Made by a program: the position numbers and the translations under genes
In this document: positions 37,563 through 46,001 of the stretch, one piece after another
Position numbering within the stretch: position 1 is the stretch's first letter
Layout of the letters: each line of letters opens with the position of its first letter
Source: Marinobacter sp.
GTDB lineage: Bacteria > Pseudomonadota > Gammaproteobacteria > Pseudomonadales > Oleiphilaceae
Length of the DNA: 64,000 nt
Direction: 5' to 3'
NCBI RefSeq assembly: GCF_048266785.1
Contig: NZ_JBLWYX010000009.1
Span: 52,325 to 116,324, forward strand
Notes under the pieces: model-generated
What the model was told of the DNA's origin: nothing
The model's database searches: none
Seen by the model: only the letters and a program-made list of their open reading frames with translations

Positions 37563-37649
37563 TGGTGCTCCGGGCCGGAATCGAACCGGCACGACCGTGA
37601 GGTCGAGAGATTTTAAGTCTCTTGTGTCTACCAATTCCACCACCGGAGC
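37563..37649 (-). tRNA. tRNA-Leu (anticodon TAA)
   Basis: GCTCCGGTGGTGGAATTGGTAGACAC-AAGAGACTTAAAATCTCT-long variable arm-GGTTCGATTCC-GGAGCACCA; 87 nt with encoded CCA. Confidence 0.97.
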
Positions 37650-37674: not shown

Positions 37675-37703
37675 ATTGTATAAGGCCATGGGCGATAACG
37701 CAA
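37675..37703 (-). promoter_or_regulatory. Sigma70 promoter of tRNA-Leu
   Basis: Minus strand TTGCGT-N17-TACAAT followed by a GC-rich discriminator. Confidence 0.75.
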
Positions 37704-37706
37704 TTC

Positions 37707-37741
37707 AAAACACCGTCAACTGGCGGTGCTGACGGCGTTTT
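37707..37741 (-). terminator. Intrinsic terminator after tsdA
   Basis: AAAACGCCGTCA-loop-TGACGGTGTTTT on the minus strand. Confidence 0.65.
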
Positions 37742-37745
37742 GGGT

Positions 37746-38705
37746 TTATTTGCTGGCAACTCCGGGGTTTTCGCCGTAGTTGTCGTGATCCCCCAATCGT
37801 TTGCCTTCTACTTCCTTGCCATAGAAGCCATCGTGGTTATGAAAGGTGTTGGCGGTGCTGTCCAGTGAGTCCTGATTGCGGCGGCGTGGGTCCTGAGGGC
37901 GCTCATGGCTGTTGACGAAGGCGGCCAGGTCCCAAGCATCCTGATTACTCAGGGAGTCGGGCTTGCCCAATGGCATATTGGCTTTGATAAATCCGGCAGC
38001 GGTATTTACGCGGTGCATACCTGCTCCCCAGTTGTAAGCTCCATCACCCCATAGAGGCGGGAAGACCACCTGCCCTGCCACCTCTTGGCCGCGGCCATCA
38101 TCACCATGGCACACAGCACATTGCTCGGTGTAGAGCTTGGCGCCGTGCTCCCGGTCATAACCGCCTTCCGGCTTTTCAAGTTTGGTGTAACCACGGCCAG
38201 GCAGGGCCTGGTTGATGGGCGCGCCCGTTGATAGCCAGTGGAAATAGGTTTCCATCGCCACCACGGTTTCATCACCGGCTTCTGGGGGAATGCCGTTCAT
38301 GGAGTAGGTAAAGCAACCCTGGAGGCGTTCACTCAGGGTATTGACCTTGTCATTTTTACCTCGGTACGCGGGATACATGCCAAAAGCTGCCCACATGGGG
38401 GCGGAGCTGGCTATACGGCCGGCGTCCAGGTGGCAGTTGACGCAGTTCTGGCCGTTAAACACGTTTTTGCCACGCAACTGCTGTGTATTTACGAACAGGT
38501 CTCGCCCCTTGCGTACCATGTCGCCGTACTGGTTGTCAGGTATATCCCGCTCTTGTGGCGGTTCAAAGGTGATCTGGCCTTCAGGTGCTGCAGGCAGCTG
38601 TTTCTGGTAGTCCACTTCAGGTTCTGCGGCGTGAACCAGTGTTGATACCATCAACACCGACAAGGAGCTCGCTGCAACCGACAAAAATGATTTGCACAAG
38701 TTCAT
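37746..38705 (-). CDS. tsdA: Thiosulfate dehydrogenase, diheme cytochrome c
   Basis: Signal peptide; CVNCH and CAVCH; heme-ligating Cys motif RLQGCFTYSMNG; PPLWG..NWGAGM. Confidence 0.88.
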   Translation of the reverse strand: MNLCKSFLSVAASSLSVLMVSTLVHAAEPEVDYQKQLPAAPEGQITFEPPQERDIPDNQYGDMVRKGRDLFVNTQQLRGKNVFNGQNCVNCHLDAGRIASSAPMWAAFGMYPAYRGKNDKVNTLSERLQGCFTYSMNGIPPEAGDETVVAMETYFHWLSTGAPINQALPGRGYTKLEKPEGGYDREHGAKLYTEQCAVCHGDDGRGQEVAGQVVFPPLWGDGAYNWGAGMHRVNTAAGFIKANMPLGKPDSLSNQDAWDLAAFVNSHERPQDPRRRNQDSLDSTANTFHNHDGFYGKEVEGKRLGDHDNYGENPGVASK

Positions 38706-39394
38706 TAACGATTCTCCTTTTCTTCGGCCTGCCCAGCCAGTTGCTCTGGCAGAGCTGCGTAGTATTCGGTGATGGCTGAGATCTGTTGTTCGCTGAGTCG
38801 GTCGGCGATTCCCTTCATCAAATGATTAGGGTCGTTATTGCGGGTGCCGTTACGCCAGGCAAGAATCTGGCTCTTCAGATAACTGGCATGTTGCCCTGCG
38901 AGGGCCGGAAACGAATTTCCCACGCCCATACCGTTGGGGCCGTGACACTGGTTGCAAGCCGGTATGAGATTATCCCAGTCACCCCGCAAGGCCAGCCACT
39001 CGCCTGGGTTGGCCGGGTCTGGCGCTTGATAAGCAACGGCGGAAACTGGTGACTGAAGGCTCTGGTAGTAGGCTGATACCGACTGGATATCGTCTTCTGT
39101 TAACGCTGTGGCAAAAGGTTGCATAATCGGGTTTTTACGTGTGCCTTTGGCGTAATCATGAAGTTGCTTGCTCAGATAATCGGCGTTAAGGCCAGCAATG
39201 TCCGGAAAGCCAGCCGCAGCATTGCCCTTGCCATCCGGTCCATGACAGGTAGTACAAGCCAGAGCGCCTGCCCCATTACCCTGTGTTGCAATGTTTTCAC
39301 CGCGTGCTGTATCTCCGGCGGCAACCGCTACACCTGTACTTAGCGCAACGGTGACTGCAAGCAGAGATAAAGCAGCTCTCGTCATTTTGGTCAT
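38705..39394 (-). CDS. tsdB: Diheme cytochrome c4-type electron acceptor
   Basis: CTTCH and CNQCH, signal peptide; TAATG coupling to tsdA; probable start ATG 39394 after GGAG. Confidence 0.82.
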   Translation of the reverse strand: MTKMTRAALSLLAVTVALSTGVAVAAGDTARGENIATQGNGAGALACTTCHGPDGKGNAAAGFPDIAGLNADYLSKQLHDYAKGTRKNPIMQPFATALTEDDIQSVSAYYQSLQSPVSAVAYQAPDPANPGEWLALRGDWDNLIPACNQCHGPNGMGVGNSFPALAGQHASYLKSQILAWRNGTRNNDPNHLMKGIADRLSEQQISAITEYYAALPEQLAGQAEEKENR

Positions 39395-39433
39395 TGGTGT
39401 GCTCCTGCCTTTGGCATATTCACGCTGAAGCAT

Positions 39434-40057
39434 TTAGCTGGGCTTCCGTGCGATCCCTTTGTAAATATAGCCGGCTATTTTCGGTGCGCTGGGCATGTAA
39501 AAATTTTCCAGTGCCGTTAGCTCAAATCCTGCATGTCGGATCAGGTCTGCGATACGGCGGTTCAGGTGGCAACCACCGGCGAGCTTTTTCCAGCCAGGTG
39601 TAATTCGGTGTTGCCATTTGCGGATGTTTTCATGGGGTGCTTCGCCGTGTTCCAGAAACAGAAGCTCCCCTCCGGGCTTCAGTACCCGCTTCATTTGCAG
39701 AAGCGCAGTGTTCCAGTCGGATATGGTGCACAGGGTGAAGGTAAGCAAAACGGTATCCACGCTGTTGTCATCCAGAGGGATTTGCTCGCCCGGCAGGCTC
39801 AGCCACTCTACGCGTATTGGCGAGCGCTTCAGGTTTGGTAACGCTTTGCGCCGCATCCCCTCAGAAGGCTCCAGCCCGTAGACGAACTCAACAGTGTCCG
39901 GATTGTAGAACTCCAGATTAATACCCGAGCCCATTCCCACCTCAAGCACGCGGCCTTTTGCCAATGGCACAAGTTGGCTGCGCAACTTCATAACCTGGCC
40001 CATTGAGCAGGCACGATCTATGATGTGTGGCAGGATTCGTTCTTCGTAAAAGCTCAT
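39434..40057 (-). CDS. mddH: Class I SAM-dependent methyltransferase, putative H2S/methanethiol S-methyltransferase (MddH/TMT1-like)
   Basis: GRVLEVGMGSGIN, DTVLLTFTLCTI, LFLEHG, GGCHLNR resemble the METTL7/TMT1-type family; context tsdBA and cydAB-cydDC. The methyltransferase call is secure; the mddH symbol is tentative. Probable start 40057. Confidence 0.6.
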   Translation of the reverse strand: MSFYEERILPHIIDRACSMGQVMKLRSQLVPLAKGRVLEVGMGSGINLEFYNPDTVEFVYGLEPSEGMRRKALPNLKRSPIRVEWLSLPGEQIPLDDNSVDTVLLTFTLCTISDWNTALLQMKRVLKPGGELLFLEHGEAPHENIRKWQHRITPGWKKLAGGCHLNRRIADLIRHAGFELTALENFYMPSAPKIAGYIYKGIARKPS

Positions 40058-40071
40058 GCTTTTCACCATAA

Positions 40072-40085
40072 TTGTTTTAAATCAA
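40072..40085. promoter_or_regulatory. Possible FNR/Anr box
   Basis: TTGTT-TTAA-ATCAA, one mismatch to TTGAT-N4-ATCAA, in the divergent methyltransferase/cydA intergenic region. Confidence 0.35.
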
Positions 40086-40241
40086 TGGGTGCGACAATCT
40101 GCCCTATCGGTTTTGCTACCATAACCAGTAGCATGTATTTTATCTGTCGGTAATAACAATATAACAATTAAAGCTAAGGCAGCGGCTGAACGGGTTTTCT
40201 TAGCTCGTTTATTGTGACGTTTACATTACCGGAGTGTTCCT

Positions 40242-41672
40242 ATGGAACTAGATCCTCTCATCCTATCGCGAATCCAGTTCGCGTTCGTCGTGTCATTTCA
40301 CGCCATTTTCCCGGTGTTTACCATCGGCCTCGCCTCCTATATTGCAGTACTTGAGGGGCTTTCGTTCAAAACGAAAAACCCGGTATGGATGAAGCTTTCT
40401 TCGTTCTGGACCAAGGTGTTCGCCGTAGTCTTTGGCATGGGCGTTGTCTCGGGTATTGTGATGTCGTTCCAGTTCGGCACCAACTGGAGTAACTTCGCCC
40501 AGGCTTCGGCTAACTTTCTCGGCCCGATGCTGAGCTATGAGGTAATTACGGCCTTCTTCCTCGAAGCAGCTTTCCTCGGCGTACTACTGTTCGGTCGGGA
40601 TCGTGTCCCTGCGGGTGTTCACCTGTTTGCGGCGGTTATGGTCGCGACCGGTACATTCATTTCTTCGTTCTGGATTCTTTCAGCAAACAGCTGGATGCAC
40701 ACACCTGCCGGCACTGAACTGCGGGATGGGGTGTTCTTCGTGACCTCCTGGAGCGAGGCAATCTTTAACCCGTCCTTCAAGTACCGTTTTACCCACATGG
40801 TTATGGCCTCGTTCCTTACCGGCGGCTTCGTCGTCGCTGGCGTTAGCGCCTGGTATTTGCTGAAAGGGCGTGAAGTAGAAGCCAACCGCAAGGCACTCTC
40901 GATGTGCCTGTGGTTACTCTTGTTTCTTGCCCCCACGCAGGCGGTCGTTGGTGATTTCCACGGGCTTAATACCCTTGAACACCAGCCCATGAAAGTGGCC
41001 GCAATGGAAGGCAACTGGGAAACGTCCCGGAATGTTCCTTTGCTGTTGTTCGCCATTCCTGACCAGGAAAACCAGACTAACCTTTTTGAAATTGGTATTC
41101 CGAGCGTCGCCAGTCTTATTCTGACGCACGACTGGAATGGAGAGGTGCCAGGCCTTGAGGAGGTTTCCATAGAAAATCAGCCACCTGTGGCCATTGTGTT
41201 CTGGTCGTTCCGGGTTATGGTCGGCCTCGGATTGCTGATGATCCTGTTCGCCGTTGTTGGTCTGGCACTGCGGGGTGGCGATCGTTTTTGGCGAACCCGC
41301 TGGTTCCTTCAGGGGATGCGTTTTATGAGCGTTGCGCCCTTCATTGCAGTGCTCGCGGGCTGGTTTGTGACCGAAACTGGTCGTGCGCCGTGGCTGGTGT
41401 ACGGCATGATGACCCAGGCGGAAGCGGTAACACCGTCGCTCACCGGCGGCATGGCACTGTTCACTCTGATTGGTTATGTGGTGGTTTACTCTATGGTGTT
41501 CTCAGCCGGCGTTTACTACCTGATGCGCGTGCTCTATGTAGGGCTTGAGGATGATTACGACGAAGCGCCGGAACAGGCCGAACGGCCGAAGCGGCCTCTT
41601 TCTGCCAGTCATGTGCCCTTTGAAGTGCGTGAAGGCTCAAAATCCAATCCAGCCAATCAGGGAGATCACTAA
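40242..41672 (+). CDS. cydA: Cytochrome bd ubiquinol oxidase subunit I (CioA-type)
   Basis: SRIQFAFVVSFHAIF, FQFGTNW, EVITAFFLEA, QPMKVAAMEG, GWFVTETGRAPW. Confidence 0.96.
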   Translation: MELDPLILSRIQFAFVVSFHAIFPVFTIGLASYIAVLEGLSFKTKNPVWMKLSSFWTKVFAVVFGMGVVSGIVMSFQFGTNWSNFAQASANFLGPMLSYEVITAFFLEAAFLGVLLFGRDRVPAGVHLFAAVMVATGTFISSFWILSANSWMHTPAGTELRDGVFFVTSWSEAIFNPSFKYRFTHMVMASFLTGGFVVAGVSAWYLLKGREVEANRKALSMCLWLLLFLAPTQAVVGDFHGLNTLEHQPMKVAAMEGNWETSRNVPLLLFAIPDQENQTNLFEIGIPSVASLILTHDWNGEVPGLEEVSIENQPPVAIVFWSFRVMVGLGLLMILFAVVGLALRGGDRFWRTRWFLQGMRFMSVAPFIAVLAGWFVTETGRAPWLVYGMMTQAEAVTPSLTGGMALFTLIGYVVVYSMVFSAGVYYLMRVLYVGLEDDYDEAPEQAERPKRPLSASHVPFEVREGSKSNPANQGDH

Positions 41673-41674
41673 TT

Positions 41675-42676
41675 ATGGAACACTTTGATCTTGTTTTGAT
41701 CTGGGCATTTATCATCGGTTTTGGCGTGATCATGTATGTCTTGATGGACGGCTTCGATCTGGGCGTGGGAATCCTGTTCCCTTTCGCTCCATCGGAGCAG
41801 GATCGGGATACGATGATGAACACTGTTGCACCCGTATGGGACGGCAATGAAACCTGGCTGGTGCTCGGCGGCGCAGGGCTTCTGGGAGCCTTCCCTTTGG
41901 TCTACAGCATTTTGCTGCCGGCCTTGTACATTGGCGTGTTCCTGATGCTGTCAGGCCTGATTTTCCGCGGCATTGCGTTCGAGTTCCGCTTTAAGGCGCG
42001 CAGCTCGCGTTATCTGTGGAACTGGGCTTTCGCCGGAGGCTCCACTCTTGCAGCGTTTGCACAGGGTGTGGTCGTGGGCACCTACATTCAGGGTTATGAG
42101 ACAGCTAATGGCGTGTTCACCGGCGGCGCTCTGGACTGGCTCACTCCCTTTACGGTGCTGACGGGTCTCGGGCTAATTGCGGGTTACGCTTTGCTGGGCT
42201 CTACCTGGCTGATCCTGAAGACTGAAGGCCGGCTACAGGAATGGGCTTACAAGATCACCTTGCCCCTGCTCACAGCAGTGCTGGTGGTCTTCGGTATTAT
42301 CAGCGTATGGACTCCGTTCATTGACGATATGGTGCGTGACCGCTGGTTCAGCAACCTGAGTGTAATCTGGGTGCTGCCAATACTGACTCTGCTGTGTGCT
42401 TTCCAGATTTTTCGGACTGTTCGCAAAAGGAAGGAAGGCATGCCTTTTGTAGCCACTATGGGGCTGTTTATAACCACCTATCTGGGGCTTATTGTCAGTC
42501 GCTGGCCATACCTGGTGCCGCCTGATTATACCGTGTGGGATGCCGCCTCGGCTTACAACTCGCAGATGTTCCTGCTGATAGGCCTGGTGATTGTGATTCC
42601 TTTTGTGCTGGCTTACACAGCCTGGACCTATTGGGTATTCCGGGGCAAGGTACGTGCTGGCGAAGGTTATCACTAA
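41675..42676 (+). CDS. cydB: Cytochrome bd oxidase subunit II (CioB-type)
   Basis: MDGFDLGVG, PVWDGNETWLV, FRGIAFEFR. Confidence 0.96.
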   Translation: MEHFDLVLIWAFIIGFGVIMYVLMDGFDLGVGILFPFAPSEQDRDTMMNTVAPVWDGNETWLVLGGAGLLGAFPLVYSILLPALYIGVFLMLSGLIFRGIAFEFRFKARSSRYLWNWAFAGGSTLAAFAQGVVVGTYIQGYETANGVFTGGALDWLTPFTVLTGLGLIAGYALLGSTWLILKTEGRLQEWAYKITLPLLTAVLVVFGIISVWTPFIDDMVRDRWFSNLSVIWVLPILTLLCAFQIFRTVRKRKEGMPFVATMGLFITTYLGLIVSRWPYLVPPDYTVWDAASAYNSQMFLLIGLVIVIPFVLAYTAWTYWVFRGKVRAGEGYH

Positions 42677-44392
42677 GTGACCGAAATGCAGGTCGAGAGC
42701 AGTGCTGTAAAGCGCTGGCTCTCGGGGCTTGCCAGCGGAAACCGGCGCTGGATTCAGGGCTCAGTTGCTGCCGGCACCGTCGCCGGCGTCGCTACCATCG
42801 TTCAGATGATATTTCTGGCCCGGATTGTTCATCTTGGTGTCATTGAGAAAGCGTCAGCCACAGTACTGGCGCCTCTTTTTGCCGGCCTTGTTCTGGCAAT
42901 CGTTTCTCGCGCAGTTGCCCAGGGCGTCCAGACCCACCTCGCGGCAAGATGCAGTGAACAGGTGCGTCGCACCGCACGCCGGCAGATTCACCGGCACTGG
43001 CGCAACAGCGGCCCCCTCTTACTGGGGCAAACGTCTGCTGGCAGTCTGGCGCGGGAGTGGATTGATCACGTTGATGCCCTGCACGGCTACTTTTCCCGCT
43101 TCCTTCCGCAGATGACGCTGTCTCTTATTGTGCCTTTGATGATTCTGGCGCTTGTGTTCTATCTGGACTGGCTCGCTGGAATTTTCCTGCTACTTTCGGC
43201 CCCGCTGATTCCCCTTTTTATGGCGCTTGTAGGAATGGGAGCTGAGAAGCTTAACCAGCAGCATTTCGAGATCATCAGCCGGCTGTCTGGCCAGTTCCTG
43301 GATAAGGTTCGAGGGCTGACCACGTTACAGTTGTTCGGGCAAACTGACAGCGCTGCAGACTTGATCCAACAGCGGTCAGATCACTACCGCAGGATTACGC
43401 TGAAAACGCTTCGTATTGCGTTTCTGTCATCGGCGGTTCTGGAGTTTTTCGCATCAGTGGCCATCGCCGTTATTGCCATTTATATCGGTTTTGGTCTTCT
43501 GGGGTATATTACCTATGGGCCATCCTCGGATCTCACGCTGTTTTCCGGCCTGTTGATTCTGCTGCTTGCGCCAGAGTTCTTTCAGCCGTTGCGCACGCTT
43601 TCCCAGTACTATCACGACCGCGCTGCTGCTCTTGGCGCTGGTGCAGAGATTCTCGCAAGGCTAGGTGATAAACCAGAACCCAATCCCTTGGCGGGCGGCA
43701 ACGAAGACACAATCGACTACAGGCCTTCAGTCAGCAATAAGGTTACGCGCCGCGAGGGGATTGAACTGAATTCTGTATCGCTTGCACTCCGCGCAGACCA
43801 CCCAATCCTCAGTGATGTCTCGCTGACCATCGGTAAAGGTGAGGTTATTGCTCTCACTGGCCCTTCGGGGAGTGGCAAGTCCACCCTCTTGCATCTTCTG
43901 GCGGGTTTTCTTACGCCGGATAACGGCGACATCGATCTATTTGGTAAACAGCCGGGATGCTTCGCCTTTGGCTGGCTTGGCCAGAGTGGTTTTCTCGTTC
44001 ACGGAACCTGGGCCGATAACCTTCGGCTCACCAGCCCGGATGTATCCGATGTGGCTATTGAAACCGCGCTGCGCAACGTCGGTCTTGGCCCTCTGCTGGA
44101 TAGCCGCAAGGAAGGTATTTTCAGCAAGGTTTCAGAGGATGGCCAGGGTCTTTCCGGAGGCCAGGCACGACGCCTGAGCCTGGCGAGAATTTTCGTGGCG
44201 GATTACGACATTATCCTTCTCGATGAACCCACGGCCGGGCTCGACTGCGACAGTGAGATCTTTGTGCTGGAGGCGCTGCACAAGCTGGCGCTGGCAGGCA
44301 AAACACTGATTTTCTCCACCCATCACCACGCGCTTTTGGCTTTGGCTAACCGGGTGCTTTTGGTCTCTGGCGGGGAGGTGACAGATGTCTGA
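42677..44392 (+). CDS. cydD: Thiol-reductant ABC exporter subunit CydD
   Basis: TLRIAFLSSAVLEFF, LLAPEFFQPLR, GPSGSGKST, LSGGQARR. Confidence 0.95.
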   Translation: MTEMQVESSAVKRWLSGLASGNRRWIQGSVAAGTVAGVATIVQMIFLARIVHLGVIEKASATVLAPLFAGLVLAIVSRAVAQGVQTHLAARCSEQVRRTARRQIHRHWRNSGPLLLGQTSAGSLAREWIDHVDALHGYFSRFLPQMTLSLIVPLMILALVFYLDWLAGIFLLLSAPLIPLFMALVGMGAEKLNQQHFEIISRLSGQFLDKVRGLTTLQLFGQTDSAADLIQQRSDHYRRITLKTLRIAFLSSAVLEFFASVAIAVIAIYIGFGLLGYITYGPSSDLTLFSGLLILLLAPEFFQPLRTLSQYYHDRAAALGAGAEILARLGDKPEPNPLAGGNEDTIDYRPSVSNKVTRREGIELNSVSLALRADHPILSDVSLTIGKGEVIALTGPSGSGKSTLLHLLAGFLTPDNGDIDLFGKQPGCFAFGWLGQSGFLVHGTWADNLRLTSPDVSDVAIETALRNVGLGPLLDSRKEGIFSKVSEDGQGLSGGQARRLSLARIFVADYDIILLDEPTAGLDCDSEIFVLEALHKLALAGKTLIFSTHHHALLALANRVLLVSGGEVTDV

Positions 44393-46001
44393 ACTAAAAC
44401 CCTGGCTAAAGTTGATCTATGCACGCCCTGGAAGGCTTTTTATCGGCGCCTTGCTGATGCTGGCCGCCCTGCTCTCGGGTCTGGGGCTGTTGGCGCTCTC
44501 TGGCTGGTTTATCACTGAAACGGCACTGGTTGGCCTTATGCTAGCGGCCAGCCTGCCAGCCACCATCAACTTGTATGTACCTGGCGGCGGCATACGGTTT
44601 TTTGCGGTTTCGCGTACGGTCTCCCGTTATCTGGAGCGGCTGTATAACCACGATACGGTGTTGAGGCTCTTAACCGATATTCGTGTTGCGCTGTTCCGCA
44701 AACTGGCCGCTGCCGGCCGCGGCCAAAGGCGCGAACTGACGGGCGCTCAGTGGCTGTCCCGGTTGACCAACGATGTTGATGCGCTGGATACACTGTACTT
44801 GCGCCTGATCGCTCCCGCTGCGCTTGCCGCATTTGTCACCCTGCTCATAATTGTTCTGGCAGCGGTACTTTTTGATAGTGTGATCGCGATCGGAATCGCG
44901 CTGATACTCGGAGTCGCATTTCTGTTGGCGACGCTGGCTGTCTACCTGCGTACCGCAAAGATTGCGTCGCGCCAGAGTGATCAGCAAGAATCTCTGCGTA
45001 CCGCAGTTATTGAACACCTGGAGGGCTTTGCTGAACTGACCGCCGCTGGCCGCACCGGCAAACACGGTGCATGGCTTCTGCGTCAGGCGCACCAGTCCTC
45101 ATCCGAGCAGGTAAAGGCAGATTCCCGCGTTGGCTGGCACCAGGCCGGTTCGAATTTGCTGATTAACCTGGCCGCAGTATTTGCGCTCTGGAGCGGCTTT
45201 GCGCTGTTTCGCTTGGGCGTGATTTCCGGGCCGGTCCTGGTTCTACTGCCTATCGCACTGCTTGGGCTCGCTGAAGTCTACGGCATGCTGCCGGAAGCTT
45301 TTGGTAGGCTGGGTGCTACGCAAGCTTCTGCCGCTCGCCTGAACCGGGATTGCAGGGAAGATGATTCCAAAGTTTCCGCAGGGAGCATTGACCTGCCTGA
45401 GGGCTCCGCCCTGGTGGCGAACGATCTAACGGTGAAATATCCTCAAAACGCGCCGCTTTTCACGCACTTTGATTTGCAGATAAAAACAGGCGAACGAGTG
45501 GGTATTCTGGGGCATTCCGGAAGTGGCAAATCGTCCCTGGCAGATGTTTTCTCAGGACTTTTGGCACCTTCAGGTGGGGCCTGCGCCAACATACCCTGCG
45601 CCTATCTCACACAGAAAACCGTGTTGTTTGAAGATACCTTGCGGGCCAATCTGTTATTGGGTTCGCCCGATGCAAGCGAAGCGGAACTTTGGCGGATTCT
45701 GGAAATGGTTGACCTGGCTGAACGGTTTCGTTCAGAGCTTGATCAACTCGATACCTGGCTGGGGAGTTCCGGTAGCCGGCTTTCCGGCGGCGAGGCACGA
45801 CGTGTTGCCCTTGCCCGGGTGCTTTTGAGCCCTGCCCCTCTGCTGCTTCTGGACGAACCGTTTACCGGGGTGGATAAGGTCACAAGAGAAAAGATTACCT
45901 GGCAAATTGATGCCTGGCTTGAAGGCAGAACAGTTATCAGCCTGGCACACGGTCCAGATGCCCTGCCGGGCACCGACCGCGTGATTCAGTTGGGGGTTTA
46001 A
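44385..46001 (+). CDS. cydC: Thiol-reductant ABC exporter subunit CydC
   Basis: LLALSGWFI, IRFFAVSRTVSRYLERLYNHD, LSGGEARR. Confidence 0.95.
   Translation: MSELKPWLKLIYARPGRLFIGALLMLAALLSGLGLLALSGWFITETALVGLMLAASLPATINLYVPGGGIRFFAVSRTVSRYLERLYNHDTVLRLLTDIRVALFRKLAAAGRGQRRELTGAQWLSRLTNDVDALDTLYLRLIAPAALAAFVTLLIIVLAAVLFDSVIAIGIALILGVAFLLATLAVYLRTAKIASRQSDQQESLRTAVIEHLEGFAELTAAGRTGKHGAWLLRQAHQSSSEQVKADSRVGWHQAGSNLLINLAAVFALWSGFALFRLGVISGPVLVLLPIALLGLAEVYGMLPEAFGRLGATQASAARLNRDCREDDSKVSAGSIDLPEGSALVANDLTVKYPQNAPLFTHFDLQIKTGERVGILGHSGSGKSSLADVFSGLLAPSGGACANIPCAYLTQKTVLFEDTLRANLLLGSPDASEAELWRILEMVDLAERFRSELDQLDTWLGSSGSRLSGGEARRVALARVLLSPAPLLLLDEPFTGVDKVTREKITWQIDAWLEGRTVISLAHGPDALPGTDRVIQLGV

Follow-up and report, generated by a model that had tools for sequence, protein, structure and literature searches.

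A Marinobacter locus that unites mddH, tsdBA and cydABDC is probably a composite of known modules of two ages

When genes for thiol methylation, thiosulfate oxidation and cytochrome bd respiration stand side by side in one bacterial genome, do they form a single functional unit, or did they come together at different times? The question is raised by positions 37746-46001 of a 64,000-nt stretch of Marinobacter sp. contig NZ_JBLWYX010000009.1 (the whole stretch is hereafter the window), where a methyltransferase gene followed by tsdB and tsdA runs divergently from cydA, cydB, cydD and cydC. An initial annotation had read this as one divergent, co-regulated locus for sulfide-tolerant respiration, sulfide removal by methylation and energy gain from reduced sulfur. 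I conclude instead, with a probability of roughly three in four, that known modules of two ages make up the locus, namely an old backbone of the methyltransferase gene (mddH) and cydABDC, and a recent insertion of tsdBA. The arrangement is new and its parts are known; it is neither a conserved sulfide island nor a new kind of biology.

The backbone was traced through the 8 kb on either side of mddH in 80 Marinobacter species, onto which the window proteins were mapped. The cydABDC operon lies divergent from mddH at a near-invariant distance in 75 of these species and is missing as a whole from the other five, where mddH abuts the next gene (saccharopine-dehydrogenase-like). On the other side of mddH, a tRNA-Leu(UAA) gene follows on the same strand in all 80, starting 65-233 nt past the mddH stop in 73 of them; in the window, ARAGORN places this tRNA, which the initial annotation did not include, at 37563..37649 on the minus strand, directly after tsdA. 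The sister genus retains the Marinobacter order, and of 123 good-quality Marinobacter genomes, 119 have a single copy of mddH. Judged from gene order, the series of tRNA-Leu, mddH, control region, cydABDC and saccharopine-dehydrogenase-like gene is a vertically inherited backbone of the genus. MddH-like proteins are found in 63 of the 157 genera of the order, and in 39 mddH loci from other families tsdBA is absent and no cyd operon adjoins mddH, although one locus has cydAB at a distance of 5 kb.

One half of this arrangement has been seen before: mddH is reported beside cydABCD in M. litoralis, and unlinked to sulfur genes in other bacteria (PMC11445057). That paper notes the adjacency in one strain, but not its genus-wide extent, the conservation of the intergenic region or a link to tsd. 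My literature search found no other paper naming mddH together with cydABCD, and none linking tsdA with mddH. The M. litoralis Sw-45 locus has an orthologous mddH (79% identity), the same divergent cydAB(DC) and the same downstream tRNA-Leu as the window, but no tsdBA at that site. Synteny cuts both ways for the initial annotation: the linkage is not unique to the window genome, but its mddH/cydABDC part was already in the literature and is absent from the 39 loci of other families.

Variation in the cyd arm itself is of two kinds. The operon is cleanly gone from L006, L036, L047, L052 and L053, whereas M. metalliresistant CuT 6 and strain SS8-8 (L155 and L171) have seemingly lost cydAB and kept a CydD-like ABC gene beside mddH. 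Near the mddH locus of strain SS8-8 there is also a gene for a Rep3 plasmid initiator.

The distribution of tsdBA is far narrower than that of the backbone. A pair of the window type lies between mddH and the tRNA gene in the window genome and in five other species (TsdA 85-98% identical), and a second type, with a TsdA 48-50% identical to the window's, occupies the same spot in one more of the 80 species and in two of the named genomes; its carriers are M. aromaticivorans D15-8P, strain I2M14 and a metagenome-assembled genome. The site is thus occupied by tsdBA in nine of about 85 Marinobacter species, all belonging to one clade. In a locus tree of 83 tips built on MddH, CydA and CydB, every tsdBA-bearing locus falls in one clade of 18 tips with a support of 0.94. 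Of these 18 species about half no longer have the cassette, the M. antarcticus group among them, and deletion scars remain in at least three relatives within the clade. G060 keeps the ribosome-binding site and start region of tsdB with the ATG mutated, G129 has the last tsdA codons joined to the end of mddH, plus the terminator, and G040, the closest relative, retains remnants of both cassette ends. Read together, these loci suggest that tsdBA was a late insertion, once replaced or re-acquired from another lineage, and lost at least four times. An assembly chimera is ruled out, because the same junctions recur in five other species; the closest named relative of the window genome, in a scan of named genomes, is M. 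maritimus CK47, a cultured strain that shares the arrangement and whose MddH and TsdA are 96% and 98% identical.

Elsewhere in the genus tsdBA keeps other company. TsdA homologues are present in 57 of the 123 good Marinobacter genomes, nearly all at other sites: the common Marinobacter type follows an L,D-transpeptidase gene by at most 46 nt and belongs to a gene run that includes chemoreceptor and radical SAM genes, and the window type stands next to SMR and HNH genes in two genomes. Since tsdBA is so often found behind unrelated genes, its position after mddH is weak evidence of shared function. The proposal of three functions in one unit fares poorly on this record, as tsdBA arrived late, in one clade, of which about half has since discarded it, and conservation of the unit beyond close relatives was not found (nine of about 85 species within the genus, and none of the 39 loci from other families, have the link).

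A generic tRNA insertion hot spot was considered as the whole story and rejected. Integrases act at the tRNA 3' end, whereas this cassette lies upstream of the tRNA promoter, and no cargo other than tsdBA was seen between mddH and that promoter in about 85 species.

What the individual genes encode can be stated with more assurance. The junctions were read directly from the window letters, and all seven gene calls of the initial annotation stand. The methyltransferase gene (39434..40057, minus strand) is, by sequence, an mddH orthologue, because its product is 79% identical (161/203) to MddH of M. litoralis Sw-45 and 86% identical (177/207) to that of H. pelagia CL-AP6, the former having been purified and the latter assayed, under Pseudomonas (now Halopseudomonas) pelagia (PMC11445057). 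MddH is a UbiE-like cytosolic enzyme that uses S-adenosylmethionine (SAM) to methylate H2S and methanethiol (Zhang et al., 2024, Nat Microbiol, PMC11445057), and membership in the family was set at more than 45% identity to the Halomonas enzyme, apart from true UbiE; the window protein falls within this group. It has a class I SAM-dependent methyltransferase domain (Methyltransf_11, E 4e-19; Methyltransf_25, E 6e-15) and weak UbiE-like profile matches, and it belongs to the UbiE/COG2226-like group. Other methyltransferase matches in the window genome reach 26-37% identity over partial lengths. A sequence search of the PDB returned no MddH structure, the best match being an uncharacterised methyltransferase at E 6e-9. 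What had been called an S-methyltransferase can thus be assigned to the MddH family.

The published biochemistry of MddH bears on how much can be asked of it. Purified M. litoralis MddH (MlMddH) and eight more homologues confer methylation of H2S and methanethiol, and a Halomonas mddH deletion mutant loses production of dimethylsulfide at nanomolar substrate levels (PMC11445057). The same mutant has no phenotype with H2S or cysteine, and Halomonas mddH is induced by methanethiol but not by H2S (PMC11445057). MlMddH turns over slowly (0.08-0.16 per s), its Km is close to 0.2 mM, and it accepts ethanethiol and propanethiol as further substrates; the authors rate its role in detoxification as minor (PMC11445057).

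The assayed H. pelagia CL-AP6 gene (L142, NZ_AROI01000027.1) has surroundings of its own. It lies beside genes for SCO1/SenC-like and thioredoxin-like redoxins, and a small ArsR-type helix-turn-helix gene stands immediately upstream of it. An 86% identical protein in so different a setting points to horizontal transfer from Marinobacter, and the gene is possibly under a different, ArsR-family regulator.

TsdA (37746..38705, minus strand) is named here as a diheme thiosulfate dehydrogenase / tetrathionate reductase. It aligns at E 2e-83 with the C-terminal half of 5LO9, the TsdBA fusion of Marichromatium purpuratum, and at E 1e-47 with TsdA of Allochromatium vinosum (4WQ7 and related entries); it scores 40.7 bits against the SoxA/TsdA family PF21342 (cut-off 27). 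It has two CxxCH heme c sites, CVNCH and CAVCH, and its motif RLQGCFTYSMN supplies, by alignment, the cysteine axial ligand of the catalytic heme, RLQGCF aligning with RIQGCF in 5LO9 and RIGDCF in A. vinosum TsdA. An Asn-Met-Pro motif, KANMP, is found where heme 2 ligation is expected, at the position that holds the heme 2 ligands Lys208-Met209 in A. vinosum TsdA and, presumably, an Asn-Met pair in Campylobacter jejuni TsdA. A diheme cytochrome c4-like protein with two CxxCH motifs, TsdB (38705..39394, minus strand) is the candidate electron acceptor of TsdA. Its gene immediately precedes tsdA, and the protein aligns at E 1e-41 with residues 4-199 of 5LO9, the N-terminal half, and at E 5e-31 with cytochrome c4 structures. 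The two halves of 5LO9, the heme motifs and the cysteine ligand together bear out the names tsdB and tsdA. Both halves of the M. purpuratum protein align, with the heme motifs, the cysteine ligand and the order of tsdB before tsdA retained, but in the window they are two polypeptides coupled by a TAATG overlap. Compared with M. purpuratum TsdBA and with tsdB-tsdA pairs in general, the host here is a heterotroph in which no Sox genes were found (SoxB and SoxZ were sought in the window genome, which is 99.8% complete and has a single TsdA copy), and compared with such pairs in general, this one is embedded behind an unrelated methyltransferase gene. In one relative (L009; G099:C1, approximately 896.5-898.1 kb) TsdB and TsdA are apparently fused in one 527-aa frame, like M. 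purpuratum TsdBA.

On the plus strand, cydA (40242..41672), encoding subunit I of a cytochrome bd quinol oxidase, matches PF01654 at E 2e-160, and cydB (41675..42676), encoding subunit II, matches PF02322 at E 1e-98 and TIGR00203 at 166.2 bits (cut-off 117.3). The two ABC transporter subunits that follow pass their curated NCBIfam cut-offs, CydD (42677..44392), for bd assembly, with 512.6 bits against 435 for TIGR02857, and its partner CydC (44385..46001, its start overlapping the end of cydD by 8 nt) with 351.1 bits against 329 for TIGR02868. With both oxidase domains present and both transporter subunits above threshold, a cytochrome bd and its CydDC are encoded here, and the identities given to the four genes hold. 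The window CydA, at 476 aa, is shorter than the 514-522 positions of the E. coli-type (bd-I/bd-II) NCBIfam models, which match it sub-threshold, mainly over residues 4-314. As in cydABDC (cydABCD) operons of the Bacillus subtilis type, the four genes are co-oriented and tightly packed, but here they are divergently paired with mddH.

The initial annotation had also drawn a thiol argument from CydDC, as an exporter of cysteine and glutathione. CydDC is now regarded as a heme exporter for bd oxidase assembly (PMC10374445), so it contributes no independent argument for thiols or sulfide; for the same reason, CydDC next to cydAB is a standard arrangement, as it matures the oxidase that its neighbours encode.

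Are mddH, tsdB and tsdA nevertheless transcribed together in those species that carry all three? The mddH stop TAA (39436-39434) is separated by 39 nt from the tsdB ATG at 39394, which has AGGAG 7 nt ahead of it, and a TAATG at 38705 overlaps the tsdB stop with the tsdA start. In two relatives the mddH stop overlaps the tsdB start, as TGATG (G099) and ATGA (G148), and the type II cassette begins 45 nt past mddH. The 39-nt spacer has no significant structure (z -0.44); the only strong hairpin comes after tsdA, where folding gives an intrinsic terminator with a 15-bp stem and a U-tract (37701..37742, minus strand; dG -23.4 kcal/mol, z -6.0, with none of 200 shuffles folding as well). Hairpin and T-run are retained in the tsdBA-bearing relatives and in the deletion scars. 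A consensus terminator scan missed this terminator because of its loop limit of 8 nt. Between the terminator and the tRNA lies a block, GAATTGCGTTA...CCTTATACAATTC, that is conserved in all relatives aligned and that I read as the putative tRNA-Leu promoter (TTGCGT-17 nt-TACAAT, 37675..37703, minus strand). The tiny gaps, the stop/start overlaps in two relatives and the sole strong terminator after tsdA make co-transcription of mddH-tsdB-tsdA likely, and the unit proposed in the initial annotation is to this extent plausible.

A different ending of mddH is seen just outside the tsdBA-bearing lines (L011-L015). There MddH has a short C-terminal extension (…KPEAGGNR), and the mddH stop falls about 20 nt before the tRNA-Leu promoter without a terminator hairpin. 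In these species mddH transcription may continue into the tRNA gene.

The two arms diverge from 184 nt between the mddH ATG (40057) and the cydA ATG (40242), that is, 40058..40241 in the window. Across 76 species the median length of this region is 184 nt and several blocks are conserved, so that the shared intergenic region noted at the outset is indeed a conserved control region common to both arms. It contains a candidate FNR/ANR-type box, TTGTTTTAAATCAA (40072..40085), which matches the consensus TTGAT-N4-ATCAA at nine of ten positions and lies 14-27 nt ahead of the mddH ATG and about 160 nt ahead of that of cydA. A TTG-N8-CAA pattern is present in 48 of the 76 loci, 40 of which have it at index 17-18 counted from the mddH start; its outer bases are conserved and its inner ones variable. 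The window genome has 242 sites matching the consensus at nine or more of ten positions in 4.58 Mb, which means that a region of 184 nt holds one by chance about 1% of the time. The genome also encodes an FNR orthologue with a CX2CX5C cluster and an E--SR recognition helix, and 9/10 sites (TTGTTCTTAATCAA and TTGACTTGCATCAA) occur about 235 nt upstream of ccoN, a cbb3 oxidase gene (326029, G000:C3), and just upstream of the fnr-like ORF (G000:C15). The latter two sites are consistent with a working FNR/ANR regulon. The box resembles the TTGAT-N4-ATCAA-like palindromes of FNR/ANR-controlled oxidase promoters (E. coli cydAB, Pseudomonas cioAB, ccoN), although here it is a candidate, and it hints at control of one or both arms by oxygen limitation.

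A tandem ATAACAAT-ATAACAAT repeat at 40140-40165 lies inside another genus-conserved block of the same region (ATAACAAcAt.aCaA). It may be a site for a second regulator.

The history that best accommodates these data would run as follows. The backbone order has been inherited vertically throughout Marinobacter and its sister genus; in it, MddH would convert H2S to methanethiol and then dimethylsulfide in the cytoplasm at the expense of SAM, with CydAB acting as a bd-type quinol oxidase and CydDC as its heme-export and assembly factor. In the ancestor of one small clade, to which M. maritimus, M. antarcticus and M. aromaticivorans belong, a tsdB-tsdA cassette without a promoter of its own would have entered the space of about 90 nt between mddH and the tRNA-Leu promoter. 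The cassette would now most likely be transcribed from the mddH promoter, ending at the strong terminator. TsdA would oxidise thiosulfate to tetrathionate in the periplasm, if its catalytic direction is read correctly, and its electrons would pass through TsdB to c-type cytochromes and on to heme-copper oxidases. They would not reach bd, because TsdB is a c-type cytochrome and bd a quinol oxidase. The identities of the genes, the history of their order, the structure of the junctions, the terminator and the conserved box are what the data show directly; co-transcription, control by FNR, the direction of TsdBA and any physiological coupling of the three functions are what I infer here from sequence and comparison.

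Several points weigh against this account or blur its details. Internal nodes of the locus tree are weak (0.00-0.44), and how often and in what order the cassette was gained and lost is therefore a minimum estimate. A consensus promoter scan gave nothing useful in the region, and a promoter within the 3' end of mddH is possible. The position of the FNR/ANR-type box leaves both the target arm and the sign, activation or repression, ambiguous. Finally, that tsdBA from two lineages is the only cargo at this site fits selection for linkage better than a purely accidental insertion.

This last point leads to the first of the alternatives, which is close to the initial annotation: a single co-regulated sulfide-handling regulon, kept together by selection, in which all three systems are switched on by sulfide or thiol stress, perhaps combined with low oxygen. 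The bd oxidase would give sulfide-insensitive respiration, MddH would remove H2S and methanethiol as dimethylsulfide, and TsdBA would draw energy from thiosulfate formed by sulfide oxidation. It is well established that bd-type oxidases tolerate sulfide. The regulon would also explain the conserved divergent control region with its CRP/FNR-family box, the tight packing of tsdBA behind mddH and the arrival of two unrelated tsdBA lineages at one site that shows no other cargo, and, with no Sox system found, TsdBA is the only recognisable thiosulfate oxidiser in the genome. However, none of the 39 mddH loci outside the family has an adjacent cyd or tsd gene, five species have dropped cydABDC yet retain mddH, about half of the tsdBA clade has lost tsdBA, and most Marinobacter TsdA genes stand elsewhere behind unrelated genes. 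Nor does the biochemistry join the parts, since MddH is cytoplasmic and TsdBA periplasmic, TsdB cannot donate to a quinol oxidase, heme export is now the role given to CydDC (PMC10374445), and the Halomonas mutant shows no H2S or cysteine phenotype while mddH transcription is unresponsive to H2S (PMC11445057). I therefore regard such a regulon as unlikely, though it is the most serious competitor of the composite. A narrower form of it deserves a similarly tentative hearing, in which the capture of two promoter-less tsdBA lineages at the same spot would reflect selection for co-expressing thiol methylation and thiosulfate oxidation and, with the conserved FNR-type box shared with cydABDC, amount to a clade-specific regulon for reduced-sulfur stress at low oxygen. 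All three activities could plausibly serve a cell that lives with reduced sulfur, but the case for coupling them is thin.

Somewhat less probable again is that TsdBA runs chiefly in the opposite direction and reduces tetrathionate at low oxygen, in the manner of C. jejuni, within a programme of microoxic or anaerobic respiration. The FNR-type box in the control region and the bifunctionality of TsdA enzymes in the literature would suit it, as would the Asn-Met pair of KANMP at the heme 2 ligand position, presumably a likeness to the C. jejuni enzyme. On the other hand, TsdB is described as accepting the electrons of TsdA, and the solved structure that matches best is that of the M. purpuratum TsdBA fusion, an enzyme reportedly biased to thiosulfate oxidation.

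The weakest contender, that methylation of H2S and methanethiol is a side activity of an enzyme whose true substrate is something else, such as a quinone-related compound or another small thiol tied to bd function, would account for the genus-wide pairing of mddH with the genes of a quinol oxidase, for membership of the UbiE/COG2226-like group and for the slow turnover, substrate range and minor detoxification role of MlMddH, but it is improbable given that MlMddH and eight homologues do methylate H2S and methanethiol, that the Halomonas mutant loses dimethylsulfide at nanomolar substrate (PMC11445057), and that mddH persists where cydABDC is lost and is unlinked to cyd outside the family.

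The composite reading leaves a locus that is useful in two ways. It was not until 2024 that MddH was described, as a major source of dimethylsulfide in the sea, and what it does for the cell is still unclear; in Marinobacter its gene is a single-copy core gene that shares with the bd genes a conserved divergent promoter region carrying a candidate oxygen-sensor site, and this promoter region offers a handle on when marine bacteria switch on methylation of H2S and methanethiol. The clade-specific joining of mddH to tsdBA, together with natural deletion variants in close relatives, provides ready comparison strains.

The far side of the cassette holds a last observation. In L005 and L009, 3' of tsdA, the first copy of tRNA-Leu is cut off after the anticodon loop. 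AT-rich foreign sequence of about 100 nt or more comes next, and beyond it stands a second copy of the 5' part of the tRNA. This duplication looks like the footprint of an integrative element with a tRNA-Leu attachment site, an idea that fits the distance to the enoyl-CoA hydratase gene, which varies from 1.2 to 8 kb.

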